Part shown: positions 57,930 to 64,000 of the stretch, piece after piece
Position numbering within the stretch: the first letter of the stretch is position 1
Layout: each line of letters starts with the position of its first letter
Sequence record: PZ212788.1
Strand: one strand, 5' to 3'
Length of the DNA stretch: 64,000 nucleotides
Source of the DNA: a phage
The notes under the pieces: generated by a model
What the model was told of the DNA's origin: nothing
What the model saw: only the letters and a program-made list of their open reading frames with translations
Database searches by the model: none
Translations under genes and position numbers: made by a program

Positions 57930-58262
57930 ATGGTAACTTTGGAAAGACGTAAAGCTATCGCCGCCACACTGGCAGACATCTTTTGGGATTGCAACTTAAA
58001 AGATACCCGAAATTGTGGTGCATCTGTAGATGTATTATTCCCACGGCCTACTATTGTTGCAATGGGCAACCTGCTCGATGTGGTATATGGAGCATGGGAC
58101 AAGGAAGGTGGATTCTATATCTGGCAACCTGACTACGGGACTTGGAAAGAGGTTAGTGGTTCTTCGGACTTCACTCCTGCAGTGGCTAAAATGGATGGCT
58201 GGAAAATCTATGTCGGTAACGACATGGAACTGAAAGGCGAAATTGTTTACTGGTTACCTTAA
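57930..58262 (+). CDS. Hypothetical protein (110 aa)
   Basis: ORF in co-oriented early operon; weak RBS. Confidence 0.4.
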   Translation: MVTLERRKAIAATLADIFWDCNLKDTRNCGASVDVLFPRPTIVAMGNLLDVVYGAWDKEGGFYIWQPDYGTWKEVSGSSDFTPAVAKMDGWKIYVGNDMELKGEIVYWLP

Positions 58263-58283
58263 GAAAGTCCAGGAGATAAAGTT

Positions 58284-58529
58284 ATGAACAAAGGGTGGAC
58301 ATTTGTAGACGGCGTTAAAAACATGCCTCTAGGAAAGTATATTGTAGCCATGGCAGATGAGAATGGAAAGGTTGATTTCGGAGTTTGCGAGGTTGTTCTT
58401 GCAGGATCTGGTGACTATGCTCACAAAACTGGGATAATTAACGGTCATTTCTACTTTGATTACAACCCTGTTGTGGCGTATATGGCTATGCCAGAGTTCG
58501 AGCTCCCAAAGGAAGGTGCAGATGTTTAA
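58284..58529 (+). CDS. Small early protein, possible bipartite-motif family member (81 aa)
   Basis: RBS CAGGAGA; motif MPLGKYIVAMADENGKVDFGVCEV. Confidence 0.45.
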   Translation: MNKGWTFVDGVKNMPLGKYIVAMADENGKVDFGVCEVVLAGSGDYAHKTGIINGHFYFDYNPVVAYMAMPEFELPKEGADV

Positions 58530-58719
58530 GCTTAAATCTGCATGGAACATCGCTGTGGGGGACGAGATCCGTATCCCAGGTGGAAAGACCATTATGAAAA
58601 TATCTCGTATCGAGTACGAAGGTGATCGTGTATTTCATATCTTTGCAGAAGATGGTCGAGAGATTTATATACAGGCAGGATCTCACATCTATATTCGTAA
58701 GAAAGAGGAGGACAAATGA
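58522..58719 (+). CDS. Small hypothetical protein (65 aa)
   Basis: ATG 58522 with RBS AAGGAAGG, overlapping upstream stop; preferred over ORF-track 58456. Confidence 0.4.
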   Translation: MFKLKSAWNIAVGDEIRIPGGKTIMKISRIEYEGDRVFHIFAEDGREIYIQAGSHIYIRKKEEDK

Positions 58720-59045
58720 CAGAGATCATCATTTCAACTGCAGGGTATGTATTCCTGACAATCATTGCACTGGCTATTTTGGTGACAGTGTATGGGTTTG
58801 TTATCCTTCCTATCCTTGAGACATTTAGTTTGTGTCGGTGTTGGAGAAAAGCTTACGGTCCACAACCATGGAAGGACTGGCCCCACCTGGTGCGCTTAGC
58901 GTTCTCTTATGCTTACGATCACTCCAGTAGTGCATGCATAACCGGATACCACGCCCACAACTGGAGCTGGGAAGGGTTGAGGAAATGGAATGTTACAAAG
59001 ACCATACCTCTGCGCATGTACAAACCTAAAAACAAAGACAACTGA
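58716..59045 (+). CDS. Small membrane protein (109 aa)
   Basis: RBS GAGGAGG; N-terminal hydrophobic segment TAGYVFLTIIALAILVTVYGFVILPIL. Confidence 0.45.
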   Translation: MTEIIISTAGYVFLTIIALAILVTVYGFVILPILETFSLCRCWRKAYGPQPWKDWPHLVRLAFSYAYDHSSSACITGYHAHNWSWEGLRKWNVTKTIPLRMYKPKNKDN

Positions 59046-59074
59046 TACTTGAAAATTCCTGGCATATCAAGTAT
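59046..59074. repeat. Inverted repeat at the start of the noncoding region
   Basis: ATACTTGA ... TCAAGTAT arms separated by 13 nt, immediately after the last small gene. Confidence 0.4.
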
Positions 59075-59086
59075 AAGGGGGATTTC

Positions 59087-59181
59087 TAAAATGGATTTCC
59101 TCCTTTTGATATTTCACCGGGCTGGATATTTTAAAATTCTTAGAAAATCAGAAAATGGATCGAAAACTAAAATGGATTTTT
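59087..59181. repeat. Cluster of three AAAATGGAT(T/C) motif copies
   Basis: TAAAATGGATTT at 59087, GAAAATGGATCG at 59151, TAAAATGGATTTTT at 59168; a fourth copy at 59521. Confidence 0.5.
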
Positions 59182-59355
59182 CAGAGTAGGCGCGACAAGC
59201 TGAATAACTCATCCTATCGTTTGCACCATATTCCAGGCCACCATTATAGATTTCCCACACATGCTAACCTCTCTCTACTAGAACTTCCTCCACTTACCCT
59301 TGACCTTCTATGGTAACAATCTAACCGCTATCTTGAAGTTGCGGTGCAGCTTTCC

Positions 59356-59535
59356 AGGTACTCGATCTACTTTTCATTTCAGGGCTTGGATTTTCTGAAA
59401 ATTTTTCTCGATAAATTTCTCAGTACTCGATCTGTTTTTCGTTTTCTGAATCGGATTTTCTGGAAATCGTTCCGGCTCTCAACCTGAAATTTTTGGGGAC
59501 GAAATCGATTTTTCGTTTTCAGAAATGGATTTTTA
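59356..59535. repeat. Imperfect tandem direct repeats, about 65-bp period
   Basis: AGGTACTCGATCTACTTTTCATTTC (59356) versus CAGTACTCGATCTGTTTTTCGTTTTC (59421); GGATTTTCTGAAAAT (59388) versus GGATTTTCTGGAAAT (59453); partial third unit 59491-59513. Confidence 0.6.
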
Positions 59536-59649
59536 AAATTTCTATATGGGAATATTTTAGTGGATACTATTTTATAGTAAATTGTTACGGAGGGTAATTA
59601 GCGTGCTAATTAAATTTATTAAATGCGAGGAGTTCTCATTTAGAATTTT

Positions 59650-59666
59650 GAATGATAATCATTCTC
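59650..59666. promoter_or_regulatory. Fur-box-like motif, copy 1
   Basis: GAATGATAATCATTCTC matches the 3' two-thirds of the Fur consensus GATAATGATAATCATTATC at most positions. Confidence 0.3.
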
Positions 59667-59780
59667 GTTTGCAGAATAACGGGCAGGCCCGGTGATTGTC
59701 TCCCGGCCCCTGTTGCCCCGGCTTGTTATTATAGTATCACACAGGACAAAGAAAGCAAGGATTTTTTGCATAAATTTTTA

Positions 59781-59802
59781 AATGATAATGATAACCGTTC
59801 TC
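59781..59802. promoter_or_regulatory. Fur-box-like motif, copy 2
   Basis: AATGATAATGATAACCGTTCTC contains GATAATGATAACCGTTCTC, about 16 of 19 matches to the Fur consensus. Confidence 0.3.
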
Positions 59803-60207
59803 ATTTTATGCAGCGCCCATCCCCAGTGGTTGTCTCCCCCGTCACCGGTGCCTGCCGTCCTTTCGATAGGTATATTGTGCCACCTGGCGGGGCCGCTGTC
59901 AACACCTTTCAAAAAAAAAAAATTATAACCAGGTGCGCCCACTGCCAGGACCTGGCGGGGGAGAGTGAAAGCTTGCAAACCTGGTAGGGCTATGCTATAG
60001 GGTAGGCAACAACTGGAGAGGAGGTACAAAAATGAAAGGTAATATAATCCCCTGGAAAATGTAGCGACTAATGACGCTGAGGCTATCGCCATGGTTGAAA
60101 AGGCTATGGCGGGAGCGTTGGAACATAAAGAAGAGTACGAAAAAATGGTGGTTAACCTGGCGGGGGCGGCAGGTGGATTCTATCATAAAAATAATTTAAA
60201 ATAGTCG

Positions 60208-60235
60208 TTGACAACAAGGTTAATCATGGTATTAT
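60208..60235 (+). promoter_or_regulatory. Sigma70-type promoter
   Basis: -35 TTGACA, 16-nt spacer, -10 TATTAT; preceded by AAAATAGTCG. Confidence 0.6.
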
Positions 60236-60285
60236 TACCCTACAAGGTGAACAACACCGCACTAACCAGTAAAGAGGATAAATTT

Positions 60286-60483
60286 ATGAACGCATACGGG
60301 ATCAAAGTACGTCGCAACACTCGCCAGGTGGTCACCAATCAAGTGATTTGCCGGGTGGATGTAACCATCAACAACGGGCAAGGCCTTTATAAATTTCGTC
60401 GCGGTCATAGCTATACCCTGCAACAGCTTAATCGTTGCGCCCTGACAAAAGGTCAGATCAACCACTGGTTTAATAAAAAATAA
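60286..60483 (+). CDS. Small basic protein (65 aa)
   Basis: ATG 60286 with RBS AAGAGGA preferred over ORF-track 60208, which coincides with the -35 hexamer. Confidence 0.45.
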   Translation: MNAYGIKVRRNTRQVVTNQVICRVDVTINNGQGLYKFRRGHSYTLQQLNRCALTKGQINHWFNKK

Positions 60484-60486
60484 GTA

Positions 60487-60515
60487 TTGACATACAGTCA
60501 GACACCAAATACACT
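60487..60515 (+). promoter_or_regulatory. Sigma70-type promoter
   Basis: -35 TTGACA, 17-nt spacer, -10 TACACT. Confidence 0.6.
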
Positions 60516-60547
60516 AAAAGCACAAAAGACACTAAGAGGATAAAATC

Positions 60548-60946
60548 ATGAAAACCACTACCTTTAATTTTGATAATGCAGACTTTTCTTTTTCTGATGT
60601 CAAGAACTGCCGCCGTGATCGTGGATTTTACAAGGCTTATAATCTGGTGGGCCTGGACGATGACAATAATTTGCACGAAGTAGCTGAGATCCGGTATTAT
60701 GCCGCCGCCAGCGGGAACACTTACTACTGCGTTTTTTGGATACACGACAACAAGAACAACAAGTACGGCTATACTGGCGGCAAGGCGAGCGGTCACGGTT
60801 ATGATAAAGCTAACGCAGCACTTGAGAGCGCATTAAATGCTATGGGGATCACTGCCGACGGCTGGATCTACGAAGAAGAGTTTTTGTCGGCACTTGCTGA
60901 CCACCTAGGCTATAAAAAGCACATTGTAACATGCGCCCACGAATAA
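60548..60946 (+). CDS. Hypothetical early protein (132 aa)
   Basis: RBS AAGAGGA; Gly/Tyr-rich YGYTGGKASGHGYDKANAALESAL; family not recognised. Confidence 0.5.
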   Translation: MKTTTFNFDNADFSFSDVKNCRRDRGFYKAYNLVGLDDDNNLHEVAEIRYYAAASGNTYYCVFWIHDNKNNKYGYTGGKASGHGYDKANAALESALNAMGITADGWIYEEEFLSALADHLGYKKHIVTCAHE

Positions 60947-60952
60947 AAATCA

Positions 60953-60980
60953 TTGACACGCTGCAAAATTTAAGTAAACT
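60953..60980 (+). promoter_or_regulatory. Sigma70-type promoter
   Basis: -35 TTGACA, 16-nt spacer, -10 TAAACT. Confidence 0.55.
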
Positions 60981-60990
60981 AGACACAAAA

Positions 60991-61009
60991 GGCGGGAATG
61001 TTTCCCGCC
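60991..61009 (+). promoter_or_regulatory. 5'-terminal mRNA stem-loop
   Basis: GGCGGGAA-TGT-TTCCCGCC, about 5-10 nt after the predicted start site, no U-tract; same arms as the hairpin at 63535. Confidence 0.5.
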
Positions 61010-61028
61010 AGCACAAAGGAAAAAGATC

Positions 61029-61424
61029 ATGAATAAGAACGTACGCCGCATCATGAACGAACTGGCAAACGATGAAAAAATTATTGACATGCATTTAGTC
61101 AACATTTGCCGCCGTTGTGTAACATATAACAACCGCGCCGCAAAAGCGCGTGAGATGAACGCAAAAGGCACCTTAAAGCCCTTTCAGGTGGTTGTAAAAT
61201 CTATAACCAGTGCAGCAGGCCAGGCGCATGACCACAACAACGGGAGCACTAATATTGATCCGTCTTACGTAATGAAACGGATCCGGACTTGCAAGAATAA
61301 AGAGCAGGTGTATAATGTCATAGACTGGTTGGATTCTATGGGCGATGTGGTTTACAATAGGTTTTCTGCAGCTATCGAGATCCAGCTTGACAGGTTGGAC
61401 GGTAAAGTACTGAAAACTTACTAA
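61029..61424 (+). CDS. Hypothetical early protein (131 aa)
   Basis: RBS AAAGGAAAAAG. Confidence 0.5.
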   Translation: MNKNVRRIMNELANDEKIIDMHLVNICRRCVTYNNRAAKAREMNAKGTLKPFQVVVKSITSAAGQAHDHNNGSTNIDPSYVMKRIRTCKNKEQVYNVIDWLDSMGDVVYNRFSAAIEIQLDRLDGKVLKTY

Positions 61425-61435
61425 GATTATTTTTA

Positions 61436-61472
61436 GATGGCCTTGACTTCAGGGCCATCAATAAAGTAAACT
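61436..61472 (+). promoter_or_regulatory. Repeated palindrome-promoter element, copy 1
   Basis: GATGGCC-TTGACTTCAG-GGCCATC inverted repeat bracketing the -35 TTGACT, then -10-like TAAACT; 45-bp core is near-identical to the element at 62067. Confidence 0.55.
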
Positions 61473-61504
61473 AATCCCAGTTAAGCGAAAAAGGAGGCTT
61501 GAAG

Positions 61505-61624
61505 ATGAGCACTACACGCCAACACGCAAAGGTAACGATTATCGTTTGCATCATTGGTTACATTCTGGCGCAAATGTTGATGGGTAGCGCCAATGATTTC
61601 GCAAAATTTTTCTTAGACTTTTAA
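61505..61624 (+). CDS. Small hydrophobic peptide (39 aa), below ORF-track cut-off
   Basis: RBS AAGGAGG 6 nt upstream of ATG; predicted single transmembrane helix VTIIVCIIGYILAQMLMG. Confidence 0.35.
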   Translation: MSTTRQHAKVTIIVCIIGYILAQMLMGSANDFAKFFLDF

Positions 61625-61652
61625 TTGACAAGATAACTTAAATCAGTATAAT
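61625..61652 (+). promoter_or_regulatory. Sigma70-type promoter, consensus
   Basis: -35 TTGACA, 16-nt spacer, -10 TATAAT. Confidence 0.7.
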
Positions 61653-61666
61653 ACTAAGCACATAAA

Positions 61667-61682
61667 CGGGAAAACTTCCCAG
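61667..61682 (+). promoter_or_regulatory. 5'-terminal mRNA stem-loop
   Basis: CGGGAA-AAC-TTCCCAG, the same AAC loop and GGGAA/TTCCC arms as the 63535 hairpin. Confidence 0.4.
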
Positions 61683-61704
61683 AACACCAAAAGGAGAAAA
61701 CATT

Positions 61705-62055
61705 ATGAATACTTCCATCACTATGACCGCCGAAGAAAAAGCCCTGCAGATCGCCGCTCTGAAAAAACAGATCGCAGACCTTGAGAATAAGATCGACAAT
61801 TTTGAAATCGACGAAGACAAGTACGACGATAAATATGATGAATGGTTAGACGAGATCTACGGCGAAATCATGATCGGAAACATTTCTTTTCTTCCGTCGC
61901 GTATCCTCAAGGAGCTAGATCCTATCGCTTACCGCTGCGGATTTAGCGACTACATCGACAGCCTGGATATTGAGGACGATGAAGAATACCAGGAATTACA
62001 GACAGAGTTAGAAGAAGCAAAAGAAGAGCTTGCGGAGCTGGAAGAAAACGAGTAA
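61705..62055 (+). CDS. Highly acidic coiled-coil protein (116 aa)
   Basis: RBS AAGGAGA; acidic runs EIDEDKYDDKYDEWLDE and DIEDDEEYQELQTELEEAKEELAELEENE. Confidence 0.5.
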   Translation: MNTSITMTAEEKALQIAALKKQIADLENKIDNFEIDEDKYDDKYDEWLDEIYGEIMIGNISFLPSRILKELDPIAYRCGFSDYIDSLDIEDDEEYQELQTELEEAKEELAELEENE

Positions 62056-62066
62056 GCTTATTTTTA

Positions 62067-62103
62067 GATGGCCTTGACACCAGGGCCATCAATAAAGTAA
62101 ACT
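62067..62103 (+). promoter_or_regulatory. Repeated palindrome-promoter element, copy 2
   Basis: GATGGCC-TTGACACCAG-GGCCATC inverted repeat bracketing the -35 TTGACA, then TAAACT. Confidence 0.55.
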
Positions 62104-62144
62104 TTATACTGTTAACACTGAACTAATGCATAGGAGTTAAAACC

Positions 62145-62390
62145 ATGGCAGCACTAATCACCAAATATTATGCCCCTACCAACACCAAAAGCGCCCGTAT
62201 CATGGTAAAAGGCTTCGGACGTAAAAAGGTGTACACCTGGGATTATGCCTTAGACACGGAAGACAACTACACCAACGCAATGACCGATTTTATTAATGAA
62301 CTAAATAAGCAGATCTTGACAAGTTATAAAGTGACCGATATTGCTTATATAGGTGAAGGCGGGATCTGTTTTGTAGGCATTGTGAAATAG
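62145..62390 (+). CDS. Hypothetical early protein (81 aa)
   Basis: RBS AGGAG. Confidence 0.45.
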   Translation: MAALITKYYAPTNTKSARIMVKGFGRKKVYTWDYALDTEDNYTNAMTDFINELNKQILTSYKVTDIAYIGEGGICFVGIVK

Positions 62391-62400
62391 TTATTTTTTC

Positions 62401-62440
62401 GGTGGTCCTGGTTGCAGGGCCATCTATAAAGATAATTTAT
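62401..62440 (+). promoter_or_regulatory. Degenerate third copy of the palindrome-promoter element
   Basis: GGTGGTCC-TGGTTGCAG-GGCCATC followed by TATAAAGATAAT; same arm and -35 layout but diverged. Confidence 0.35.
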
Positions 62441-62464
62441 TAACACCATGAAAGGAGAAAGTAC

Positions 62465-62818
62465 ATGATCAGCGGGGCAAGTTTTATTATTGGCGCTATT
62501 GCTACGGCTTTAATTGTAAATAAGATCCAGGATAAAAAGGAAAGAGGAAGTACCGCCCTTGCAGAATATCCATTTTGGGCATTCAACGATAACGAAGATT
62601 ATATTATAAAGTATAAAAATAAAGAAGGTGACCAAGTAACACCGCGACCGATCCCGGCTTACAAAATGCAGGAAACACTATACCGCCTGGAGGCGGGAGG
62701 CGCAAAAATTGTAGACTTTTGGGGATACGACCACACAGATCAGGAAGTTATAAAGCGCCGTATCCGGGCTATTCAGGCCAATATTGAAGTTAGCAAGGGG
62801 GGAATATATGAAAATTAA
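62465..62818 (+). CDS. Membrane protein with N-terminal transmembrane helix (117 aa)
   Basis: RBS AAAGGAGA; hydrophobic SGASFIIGAIATALIV. Confidence 0.45.
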   Translation: MISGASFIIGAIATALIVNKIQDKKERGSTALAEYPFWAFNDNEDYIIKYKNKEGDQVTPRPIPAYKMQETLYRLEAGGAKIVDFWGYDHTDQEVIKRRIRAIQANIEVSKGGIYEN

Positions 62819-63005
62819 TTTCGAGAAAATTGTAAAGCGCCCTCATGATTCCGAAGAGCTGCCAGAACGCCGCCAGCGTAACAATAAACTGAATAAGCCA
62901 AAAAGGTTTGGGAAGATCTGGCGTAATCATTATGATCGTAAATTGCCCGGCCTACTTTTGGAACGTGAACGACAGGCAGAACGATACCGCCATAAAGACA
63001 AATAA
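62808..63005 (+). CDS. Small basic protein (65 aa)
   Basis: ATG 62808 with RBS GGGGGAA; Arg/Lys-rich PERRQRNNKLNKPKRFGKIWRNHYDRK. Confidence 0.4.
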   Translation: MKINFEKIVKRPHDSEELPERRQRNNKLNKPKRFGKIWRNHYDRKLPGLLLERERQAERYRHKDK

Positions 63006-63013
63006 CAACCAAC

Positions 63014-63043
63014 GCCCCGCCATTGTGCGGGGCTTTTTATTTC
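63014..63043 (+). terminator. Rho-independent terminator
   Basis: GCCCCGC-ATTGT-GCGGGGC stem-loop followed by TTTTTATTTCT. Confidence 0.8.
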
Positions 63044-63186
63044 TATCCTACGAATAGCGCCCCTGGTTGGCCCCACAAACGCCACAAAAGCCCCTACCTA
63101 TGCAATCCCCTTTCTTGACCTGAAAACAACGTCTAGGGCCGTTTTATGGCGTTAAAAATATTATTGACAGTGATTTTATTCAAAGC

Positions 63187-63215
63187 TTGACACCTTGGAA
63201 TAGTCCGGATATACT
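63187..63215 (+). promoter_or_regulatory. Sigma70-type promoter, second TTGACA 23 nt upstream
   Basis: -35 TTGACA, 17-nt spacer, -10 TATACT; another TTGACA at 63164. Confidence 0.65.
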
Positions 63216-63246
63216 AACCACATCAAAGCAAGAAGGAGTAAACGCC

Positions 63247-63507
63247 ATGCGTAAATTAAAAAATTTTGATAAAGTAGATGTTGTCCTGAATAATTTTTAC
63301 TACTGCAATAATAAAGCCGTTTGGTGGCGTGATAGTTCCACCGATAAAGTTAAAGCGCGCTTTCTCCAAGGGCACTGGCAAGGCCGCCCAGTGATTAAAA
63401 TCTTAGGGCAATTGGTAGCGTTTAAAAATTGCCACCGTGTTGACGACTTTGAAGATATTTTGAACATTTTACGCCACAATAATTTAAAAAATAGTGTTGA
63501 CAAGTAA
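63247..63507 (+). CDS. Hypothetical early protein (86 aa)
   Basis: ATG 63247 with RBS AAGGAG preferred over ORF-track 63187, which coincides with the -35 hexamer. Confidence 0.45.
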   Translation: MRKLKNFDKVDVVLNNFYYCNNKAVWWRDSSTDKVKARFLQGHWQGRPVIKILGQLVAFKNCHRVDDFEDILNILRHNNLKNSVDK

Positions 63508-63524
63508 GCCTCAATAAGTATACT
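63497..63524 (+). promoter_or_regulatory. Sigma70-type promoter
   Basis: -35 TTGACA overlapping the upstream stop, 16-nt spacer, -10 TATACT; preceded by AAAATAGTG. Confidence 0.65.
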
Positions 63525-63534
63525 TAAACACACA

Positions 63535-63553
63535 GGCGGGAAAACTTCCCGCC
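63535..63553 (+). promoter_or_regulatory. 5'-terminal mRNA stem-loop
   Basis: GGCGGGAA-AAC-TTCCCGCC; same 8-bp arms as the hairpin at 60991. Confidence 0.5.
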
Positions 63554-63581
63554 ACTAACAAAGAAAATAGGAGAAAATATC

Positions 63582-64000
63582 ATGACCACCGTTAACATTA
63601 CTACAGGTTACAATTTATCTTTCGACGTGCTGACCGACGAACAAAAAGAAAAAGCCGTTGAAATGGTCCGCGAAAGAGAAGAACACAGCGGGGATAATTT
63701 TTTTGCAGAAAGTGTAATTGAATACTATAAAGAATATGTTTTTCCAGAGTATGGCCTTGAAGATACCGAAGTACATTGGTCAGGCTTTTGGTGCCAGGGT
63801 GACGGCGCGTCAATCAGTGCGGAAAACGTGGATTTAGAAAAATTCTTGCGTAAAGTAAAGGCCCTGACCAAGTTCCGATCAATTCGTCACTTGTTCGGCA
63901 CAATGCACGATGGCGAGCTATCCGCAAGTGTTGAGCGTGATCCATATAGCCGCTATAGTCACGAAAACACTGTAAGCGGGTACATCGATACTACATGGCT
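63582..64000 (+). CDS. Hypothetical early protein, N-terminal 139 codons (3' end outside window)
   Basis: RBS AGGAGAAAA; no stop to window edge; motif VHWSGFWCQGDGASIS, family not recognised. Confidence 0.45.
   Translation, partial: MTTVNITTGYNLSFDVLTDEQKEKAVEMVREREEHSGDNFFAESVIEYYKEYVFPEYGLEDTEVHWSGFWCQGDGASISAENVDLEKFLRKVKALTKFRSIRHLFGTMHDGELSASVERDPYSRYSHENTVSGYIDTTW

Follow-up and report, generated by a model that had tools for sequence, protein, structure and literature searches.

The closest described counterparts of the element reported here are the promoter-early stem-loops (PeSLs) of the T4-like phages RB49/phi1, PST and nt-1 (Arbiol et al., 2010, PMC2839356; Comeau et al., 2014, PMC4122927). 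Their layout consists of a stop codon within an A/T-rich tract, a strong sigma-70 promoter, a G-T stem-loop between or over the promoter boxes, a Shine-Dalgarno sequence (SD) and an ATG; they cluster in hyperplastic regions, and recombination between copies leads to indels and chimeric copies (PMC2839356; PMC4122927). We have analyzed a repeated element located at the junctions of small early genes in a 64,000-nt stretch of phage DNA (sequence record PZ212788.1, hereafter the window). The window belongs to the genus Vequintavirus, the rV5-like myophages of Escherichia coli: over the whole of positions 60500-63200 it shares 91-98% identity with more than 100 genomes of this genus, phage WalterGehring being the top match (97.6% identity). 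Directly evident at this locus are the repeat itself, a hairpin under strand-specific selection, a consensus promoter match and natural deletions with hybrid junctions. We consider it probable that the element is a composite of an early promoter and an RNA boundary hairpin that also acts as a recombination substrate, that is, a PeSL-like cassette outside the T4-like phages. A literature search found no report of PeSL-like elements in rV5-like phages.

On the features that can be tested with sequence, the element appears very similar to the PeSLs. It has promoter boxes (except in its third copy), an A/T tract with a stop codon, an SD and ATG, and a stem-loop with G-T; its copies are concentrated in an ORFan-rich early region, and indels in relatives end in the motif and leave chimeric copies behind. 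A further mark of the PeSLs is the excised mini-circle that recombination between two copies forms. There are, however, several differences. The element is found in the unrelated Vequintavirinae, whereas the PeSL class was defined in T4-like myoviruses; this is a functional class and not a homologous family, and calling the element a member would mean, in a limited sense and by analogy, that it is the same kind of device. It comes as 3-4 near-identical copies within 4.4 kb, compared with about 50 looser ones per genome in RB49/phi1. Its stem-loop encloses the -35 box and its upstream T tract pairs with the -10 region, with the whole promoter lying in one hairpin of ~20 bp. It lacks a U-rich tail, which makes a terminator role doubtful, and one of its copies is promoterless and seems to evolve purely as an RNA hairpin.

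The two strong copies in the window are found at 61427-61472 (copy 1, TTATTTTTAGATGGCCTTGACTTCAGGGCCATCAATAAAGTAAACT) and 62058-62103 (copy 2). They share the 46-nt form TTATTTTTAGATGGCCTTGAC-NN-CAGGGCCATCAATAAAGTAAACT and are identical except for NN, which is TT in copy 1 (61448-49) and AC in copy 2 (62079-80). An earlier sequence-only reading had described them as near-identical copies differing at two positions, starting right at stop codons and carrying a -35-like TTGAC(T/A) followed by AATAAAGTAAACT. All of this holds, apart from the start of copy 1, which it placed one base too far along (61428). The stop codons ahead of the copies are TAA 61422-24, TAA 62053-55 and, for a third copy, TAG 62388-90, and the element begins 0-3 nt further on. 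A pattern for the 37-nt core (up to 3 mismatches) matched exactly two sites, copies 1 and 2, against 0.00 expected (100 shuffles). The repeat search recovered a three-copy family (61422-61472, 62053-62103 and 62387-62437, identity 100/94/69%), the last member being the diverged copy 3. Relatives have, beyond the window end, a strong copy 4 (e.g., WalterGehring, L003:14615), likewise located straight after a stop codon.

The element is present in all 121 Vequintavirus records matched by blastn, usually as three strong copies, and the blastn search against phages found it in no phage group outside Vequintavirus. Three strong copies and the diverged one lie inside 4.4 kb of an early ORFan block, and none was found elsewhere in the 102 kb searched. 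Neither the window nor 50 kb of phage WalterGehring yielded additional copies to a covariance model built from 23 copies; the remaining matches of the model were weaker reverse-strand echoes of the known copy sites. With a permissive E-value, no Rfam family matched positions 58000-64000. An exact-pattern scan of IMG/VR gave 18 matches, two of them in real Vequintavirus contigs; the others were due to chance and were not used. When the 81-aa and 116-aa proteins of the cassettes were used as tblastn queries, distant homologues appeared in unrelated phages but no orthologous element accompanied them. No match to the element was found by blastn among 5,426 complete E. coli genomes, which rules out a host-derived site.

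Inspection of the sequence around the core indicated that the repeat is a long hairpin. The GATGGCC/GGCCATC inverted repeat pointed out earlier is present, but its 7-bp extent was an underestimate: the arms of the upper stem are 10 nt long (GATGGCCTTG / CAGGGCCATC, the eighth pair being T.G, around a loop of 4 nt) and they form part of a palindrome of ~49 nt rather than 24. A second, A/T stem is formed by the upstream TTATTTT and the downstream AAAGTAA, and the repeat of 46-51 nt and the hairpin therefore share their boundaries. In copy 1 the whole hairpin (61424-61472, + strand, 78 bits) begins at the final base of the TAA (61422-24) of a 131-aa gene, with the lower stem at 61424-61433 / 61463-61472, the upper stem at 61436-61445 / 61450-61459, the loop ACTT at 61446-61449 and an internal defect at 61434-35 / 61460-62. 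Copy 2 (62055-62103, + strand, 79.7 bits) begins at the final base of the TAA (62053-55) of a 116-aa gene and has its lower stem at 62055-62064 / 62094-62103, its upper stem at 62067-62076 / 62081-62090 and the loop ACAC at 62077-62080. Copy 3 (62389-62437, + strand), a hairpin without a -35 box, overlaps the stop codon TAG (62388-90) of an 81-aa gene and is followed by a 117-aa gene from 62465; its lower stem is 62389-62398 / 62428-62437 (10 bp), its upper stem, with two G.U pairs, is 62401-62410 / 62415-62424 and its loop is GTTG (62411-14).

The predicted + strand fold is the same for the three window copies, (((((((..((((((((((....))))))))))...))))))), i.e., a tetraloop on a G+C upper stem of 10 bp, which a small defect separates from an A/U lower stem of 7-10 bp. 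The defect, which is conserved, is found 10 bp below the loop and consists of a mismatch at 16/41, a U-A pair and a bulged U. As + strand RNA, the predicted energies are -21 kcal/mol for copy 1 (z -3.7), -23.5 kcal/mol for copy 2 (z -5.5) and -24.6 kcal/mol for copy 3 (z -4.6), the most stable prediction of the three. The third copy had been called degenerate, which is true of its DNA (14 of 46 positions differ) but not of its hairpin, which folds at least as well on the + strand: its two differences in the left arm are accommodated as G.U pairs and its lower stem reaches 10 pairs. The minus strand of copy 3 gives only -10.4 kcal/mol (z -0.8), no better than shuffled sequence. Readings as a cruciform or as single-stranded DNA were dropped because folds with DNA parameters were weak (-7.6 to -8.7 kcal/mol).

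A way to find out which strand and which molecule are under constraint is to compare the copies among genomes. We have tabulated 53 copies, which represent 34 different 60-nt sequences; besides the window, they come from 16 loci in 15 relatives, one IMG/VR contig providing two loci. Phages magaca and phiWec189 are outside this tabulation, and the genomes read in all number 19 of the ~121 that are public. Pairs were counted in an alignment of 23 distinct sequences from 17 loci. Standard pairs were found in 98.5% of the pair cells, compared with 35-57% when the 3' partners were slid by 1-3 columns, and the covariation score was 0.213, against 0.128 +/- 0.010 in shuffles that take no account of relatedness (0/500 reached 0.213). 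In the upper stem seven pairs are invariant and the other three vary on one side only, always between Watson-Crick and G.U, while two-sided changes appear at four pairs of the lower stem. Among the copy-3 orthologues, column pair 7/51 is U-A, U.G or C-G depending on the phage, and pair 9/49 is A-U, G.U or (in phiWec189) G-C. These are stepwise compensatory paths, and their intermediates pair on the + strand only. The loops vary in turn: positions 3-4 are TT, AC, CC or TC in the strong copies, and the loop of copy 3 is GTTG, GTAG, GCTG, GTAA or GTGG. The only sequence mismatched at pairs 9/49 and 10/48 is a chimera of copies 2 and 3 in phage 241Ecol014PP, indicating that the left and right differences between copies are truly matched.

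The earlier reading took conservation of the DNA as the mark of a functional site. Copy 2 supports this: across 11 orthologous loci only 4 of its 48 columns vary (two loop bases and two at the edge of the stop codon), against 15-18% of columns in neighboring coding sequence and 20-40% in untranslated region (UTR) and promoter stretches, which makes it the most conserved stretch of the locus in the 11 genomes. The identity between copies, on the other hand, comes in part from exchange among them (see below) and not from conservation of the site alone. We conclude that selection acting on the + (sense) strand keeps the structure, RNA being the simplest form in which it would do so. Among the possibilities contemplated in that reading, an RNA hairpin where genes adjoin fits well with the G.U-compatible changes in the stem, with the compensatory series in the lower stem and with the minus strand of copy 3, whose fold is no better than that of shuffled sequence.

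The other possibility contemplated there, an operator at which a dimeric regulator of phage or host origin, overlapping the -35 box, would switch a subset of early promoters off or on, seems very unlikely to us. A 10-4-10 near-palindrome centred on the -35/spacer of three promoters and invariant among genomes is what such a site could look like. However, as DNA it is symmetric at 9/10 positions in copies 1, 2 and 4 but at 8/10 in copy 3, and every departure is a G.T on the + strand: the T.G pair leaves copies 1, 2 and 4 imperfect, and in copy 3 two of the ten left-arm positions have changed, breaking the DNA symmetry but keeping the RNA pairing, in a copy that has no -35 and is still conserved. 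The G.U intermediates are strand-specific, the compensatory changes extend into the A/T flanks, well past a typical half-site (pairing covers 49 nt), no match to the element exists in any of the 5,426 E. coli genomes and no candidate regulator gene was identified among the neighboring genes.

The promoter suggested by the same reading is recognizable as a sigma-70-like match in copies 1 and 2, although the missing -35 of copy 3 had been overlooked. In copy 1 (61443-61472, + strand) the -35 box TTGACT (61443-48) is separated by an 18-nt spacer from the -10 box TAAACT (61467-72), a match of 9/12 to the consensus; the predicted start, near 61479, is followed by an SD (GGAGG) and by the ATG (61505) of a 39-aa membrane-like open reading frame (ORF). 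In copy 2 (62074-62103, + strand) the boxes are TTGACA (62074-79) and TAAACT (62098-62103), again with an 18-nt spacer (10/12), and the 81-aa gene starts downstream at ATG 62145 (+ strand). Copy 4 of the relatives reads TTGACT-18-TAAATT, and the pattern common to copies 1, 2 and 4 is TTGACN-18-TAAAYT. A GGAG-type SD and an ATG lie 28-43 nt past the -10, and a TAA or TAG precedes TTATTTTT by 0-3 nt. The -10 variant of copy 1, AAGTAAACT, recurs in the palindrome-free promoter P194 (60953-60980), and AAGTAAAYT is also the -10 of a palindrome-free Klebsiella phage promoter (TTGACA-17-TAAATT). In phage Gotham the orthologous sites of copies 2 and 4 carry a PhagePromoter annotation. At copy 3 the promoter scan made no call, CTGGTT standing where the -35 would be.

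Promoter and hairpin appear to constrain different bases of the same sequence. The loop opens with A and C, which supply positions 4-5 of TTGACN and are invariant in every strong copy; its last two bases, corresponding to position 6 and the first base of the spacer, are variable. Since a tetraloop does not require A and C, only a -35 box explains their invariance. The U.G pair of the stem exists because its T is the first T of TTGAC, and copy 3, which has no -35, has a C-G there. Conversely, the 17 other bases of the spacer are invariant because of the stem, and a promoter does not explain them. The -10-like box of copy 3 drifts (GATAAT, GATAGT, GACAGT) with the pairing intact, which indicates that copy 3 evolves as a hairpin only. 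We infer that copies 1, 2 and 4 are active sigma-70 promoters.

What the hairpin does as RNA is less obvious. The early intercistronic RNase III sites of the T7 group (e.g., R1.1) consist of two stems with an internal defect, are located near promoters, and their processing stabilizes the upstream mRNA with a 3' hairpin. RNase III sites comprise about two helical turns of double-stranded RNA, often with an internal loop at the position of cleavage, and are free of antideterminant base pairs. By analogy, the element would be comparable to the R1.1-type sites, being an early intergenic two-stem hairpin with a defect near a promoter, although there is no sequence similarity, its helix is shorter, its lower stem is pure A/U and it holds the promoter inside the hairpin, which the T7 sites do not. 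The element could then be an RNase III-type site in which the host enzyme would cut on the 3' side of the defect, leaving a protective 3' hairpin, with the promoter boxes being secondary or incidental. We give this a lower probability than the boundary hairpin favored below, but it is a real contender. Every copy has the same predicted architecture (10 bp, a 2x3 defect and 7-10 bp, ~20 bp in all), the defect is conserved, copy 3 has been retained without a -35 and compensatory selection extends to the A/U lower stem, superfluous for a simple exonuclease barrier. Selection on the lower stem together with the conserved defect makes RNase III-type cleavage a serious alternative route to the 3' end. 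Against it, the helix is at the lower limit of substrate length with a weak A/U lower stem, no explanation is given for the U.G behind TTGAC or for the invariant AC in the loops of the strong copies, and no Rfam family matches.

The resemblance to intrinsic terminators, in which a U-rich tract follows the G+C stem-loop within 0-2 nt, is also apparent: a stop codon is followed at once by a G+C-rich stem that carries a tetraloop. Nevertheless, the element has a T tract before the stem and an A-rich tract after it, the reverse of what is needed on either strand, and a scan of 58500-64000 found nine terminator-like sites, none of them at the element. The terminator reading was rejected because neither strand offers a U tract (AATAAAG or TATAAAG comes after the stem). 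A related proposal, made for the T4-type PeSLs, is that the stem-loop acts as an attenuator or terminator that curbs upstream transcription and leaves each cassette on its own promoter. The layout is matched (A/T-rich tract with a stop codon, sigma-70 promoter, G-T stem-loop, SD and ATG) and a PeSL stem-loop cut lacZ expression as strongly as rrnB T1 (PMC2839356). Still, we find this explanation unlikely for the element: AAUAAAGUAAACU replaces the U tract after the stem, the terminator scan gives no call, and copy 3 is promoterless, so that the 117-aa and 65-aa genes, left with one weak promoter candidate, would be silenced if transcription ended there.

Another conspicuous property of the locus is that copies recombine. 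Copies 1 and 2 enclose a 631-bp cassette (61427-62057, + strand) containing the 39-aa and 116-aa genes and promoter P192. In phages ime, ECP32, magaca and phiWec189 and in one IMG/VR contig the 131-aa gene is followed directly by the 81-aa gene: exactly 631 bp are gone and the junction is a single element with the upstream flank of copy 1 and the downstream flank of copy 2. Among these five genomes there are no fewer than three flank haplotypes and three variants of the loop (TC, AC and TT), which suggests that the deletion either arose more than once or was later reassorted as an allele. Similarly, the 334-bp cassette between copies 2 and 3 (62058-62391, + strand), with the 81-aa gene, is missing in 241Ecol014PP, where the junction joins the left part of copy 2 to the right part of copy 3 (...CAGGGCCATCAATAAAG|ATAATT) by a crossover within the shared core (CAGGGCCATC..ATAAAG). 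The same four loop dinucleotides are found at all three strong paralogous sites, and copies are often identical inside one genome. This pattern suggests frequent non-crossover exchange between copies, which would account partly for their DNA-level identity.

Exchange of this kind raises the question of whether the element could be a functionless repeat, a remnant of duplicated promoter cassettes held similar by gene conversion and with an accidental hairpin. The loop variants common to paralogous sites, the identity of copies within genomes and the fact that copies are dispensable in the laboratory would be expected if so. We nevertheless give this explanation hardly any credence: conversion would level loops as well as stems, yet only the loops vary; copy 3 is too diverged for whole conversion, yet every pair has been kept through compensatory steps; and copy 2 is more conserved than the coding and UTR sequences that flank it.

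The interpretation that we favor, an early promoter combined with a boundary hairpin and a recombination substrate, would work as follows. As double-stranded DNA, copies 1, 2 and 4 would serve as host sigma-70 early promoters by means of the T-rich upstream tract, TTGACN, a spacer of 18 nt and TAAAYT; transcription of the small gene that follows would start ~7 nt downstream of the -10. As RNA, the 49 nt would fold into the long hairpin, from the stop codon onward, in read-through transcripts from an upstream promoter; given that the hairpin is upstream of the start site, it would be present only in such read-through RNA, for example in P194 transcripts passing over copy 1 or in copy 2 transcripts passing over copy 3 toward the terminator at 63014-63041. 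The hairpin would mark and protect the 3' end of the upstream cistron as a barrier to 3' exonucleases, probably after an endonucleolytic cleavage in A/U-rich sequence or in the helical defect. Located at the 3' end, it would insulate adjoining cassettes from each other, and copy 3 may retain this RNA function alone. Finally, the copies are direct repeats, almost identical and separated by a few hundred bases, and the recombination system of the phage exchanges them or crosses them over, deleting or swapping the genes enclosed.

Several observations weigh against this interpretation. The role of the hairpin as RNA is proposed by analogy, and there is no U tract after the stem that would make it a canonical terminator. 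The 18-nt spacer is suboptimal, the promoter list of the rV5 genome paper omits the element, and a literature search found no data on starts, 3' ends or processing for any Vequintavirus. Most covariation events divide copy 3 from the other copies or are found in few copy-3 lineages, and the independent events are consequently few; relatedness, ignored by the shuffle control, inflates the covariation. Copy 1 has lost 5 nt of its 3' arm (GGGCC) in phage Gotham (L004 3884-3925) and has gained 1 nt in the internal defect in Phage 203 (L031 4736-4782), giving a 19-nt spacer; the constraint on copy 1 seems to be weaker than that on copy 2. Lastly, copies 1 and 4 are dispensable in the laboratory, since deletions unrelated to the element have removed both from the evolved phage rV5_ev146.

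This phage retains a single copy, and we considered it as a recombinant between copies, but this was rejected because the breakpoints are outside the element. Its deletions, of ~0.5 kb and 5.85 kb (L032 2470-2479 and 3885-3897 against L003 9833/10336 and 11772/17625), show the early block to be dispensable in culture, the first of them being in or near the 5'-UTR hairpin of P194.

The genomic context in which the element is found is a cassette array in its own right. In the records of relatives the locus is a long series of small same-strand genes, all annotated as 'hypothetical', and the + strand of the window is equivalent to the rV5 minus strand in the vicinity of ORFs 190-195. The rV5 genome paper treats the early block as a transcription unit with near-consensus sigma-70 promoters, and its list includes P194 (palindrome-free, 60953-60980) and P192 (61625-61652). 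Most small early genes have their own consensus promoter immediately 3' of the preceding stop codon, in the order stop codon, sigma-70 promoter, G+C hairpin without a U tract, SD and ATG. The element resembles these cassettes, and those of a Stephanstirmvirinae Klebsiella phage, in its stop codon, TTGACA...TATAAT-like boxes and G+C hairpin without a U tract. In most of them, however, the hairpin is placed 3' of the -10, in the 5' UTR of the cassette's own transcript (e.g., GGCGGGAATGTTTCCCGCC at 60991-61009), whereas that of the element is upstream of the start and would be found in read-through RNA only. The Klebsiella phage locus, located by tblastn, contains cassettes that are analogous, not homologous, to the element.

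These hairpins constitute a second cassette family, with the form GGCGGGAA(nn)GTTTCCCGCC or a variant of it. They are devoid of a U tract and belong to the 5' UTR, ~10 nt past an early sigma-70 promoter. They are found in the window at 60991-61009, 61666-61681 and 63535-63553, and many more are present in WalterGehring (L003). Near-identical ones after early promoters of the Stephanstirmvirinae Klebsiella phage (L033) indicate that the motif crosses subfamilies. Some records call them terminators, for which the sequence gives no support. Klebsiella phage phi1_175008 (L033 3002-3068, 5523-5600 and 8838-8923) has early promoters with a hairpin in the spacer (TTGATC-GTAGCCCCGAAAGGGGCT-ATTATT and TTGACA-GCGCCCCATAAAGGGCGC-ATAATT) or around the -10 (ATGCCCCTT-TATAAT-AAGGGGCAT), the classic PeSL arrangement in another phage group that is not T4-like.

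The first canonical intrinsic terminator downstream, at 63014-63041 (+ strand, GCCCCGCCATTGTGCGGGGC + TTTTTATTT), is annotated as such in phages EdH4 and Alma and likely ends the transcription unit that begins at copy 2. PHROGs and Pfam assigned no function to the genes flanking the element, with the sole exception of the 65-aa protein encoded at 62808-63002, which matches Pfam Phage_1_1 (T7 gene 1.1 protein, E 2.6e-11); its presence within an rV5-like early operon is a case of ORFans common to unrelated coliphages. The tRNA scan of the window found none. Upstream, ~59050-60200 comprises ~1.1 kb without credible ORFs but with imperfect direct repeats of 65-74 nt (59348-59533) and other short repeat families; it matches the 'non-coding' box of the rV5 map and may be an origin or iteron-like region. 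In WalterGehring (L003 2016-2098) an intergenic hairpin, AGAAGGGGATGCTAAAATAGTGTCTCCTTCT, with the motif TGCTAAAATA in its loop, resembles the putative late-promoter motif of rV5 (TggTAaAAtA). As regards the records themselves, 17 'Campylobacter phage' entries (host C. jejuni) are more than 90% identical to E. coli Vequintavirus and are probably mislabelled or contaminant assemblies.

The most far-reaching form of our interpretation, which we offer tentatively and as a possibility rather than an expectation, is that a whole sigma-70 promoter is embedded in a covarying strand-specific RNA hairpin, a 49-nt module whose DNA would start the downstream gene while the read-through RNA would be processed in an RNase III-type manner, sealing the upstream message. 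If true, this would be a self-insulating portable 'plug' with which large virulent phages could shuffle early ORFans by recombination leaving the neighbors undisturbed, and the looser promoter-plus-hairpin cassettes of rV5-like and phi92-like phages would be variants of one design principle. The element represents no new principle, but it is a clear and testable case. Three copies with promoter and hairpin and one with the hairpin only provide a natural experiment in which DNA-level and RNA-level constraints can be separated on one sequence. In practical terms, it draws attention to early promoters that lack annotation, to probable mRNA boundaries and to segments prone to deletion in biocontrol phages, and it suggests compact promoter/insulator parts for phage engineering. 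For the biology of these phages, the idea of the 'mobile regulatory cassette' would be extended from the T4-like phages to the unrelated rV5-like Vequintavirus, a group of therapeutic and typing coliphages, in which natural genomes from before and after the events show genes of the accessory early region being lost through the action of the cassettes.

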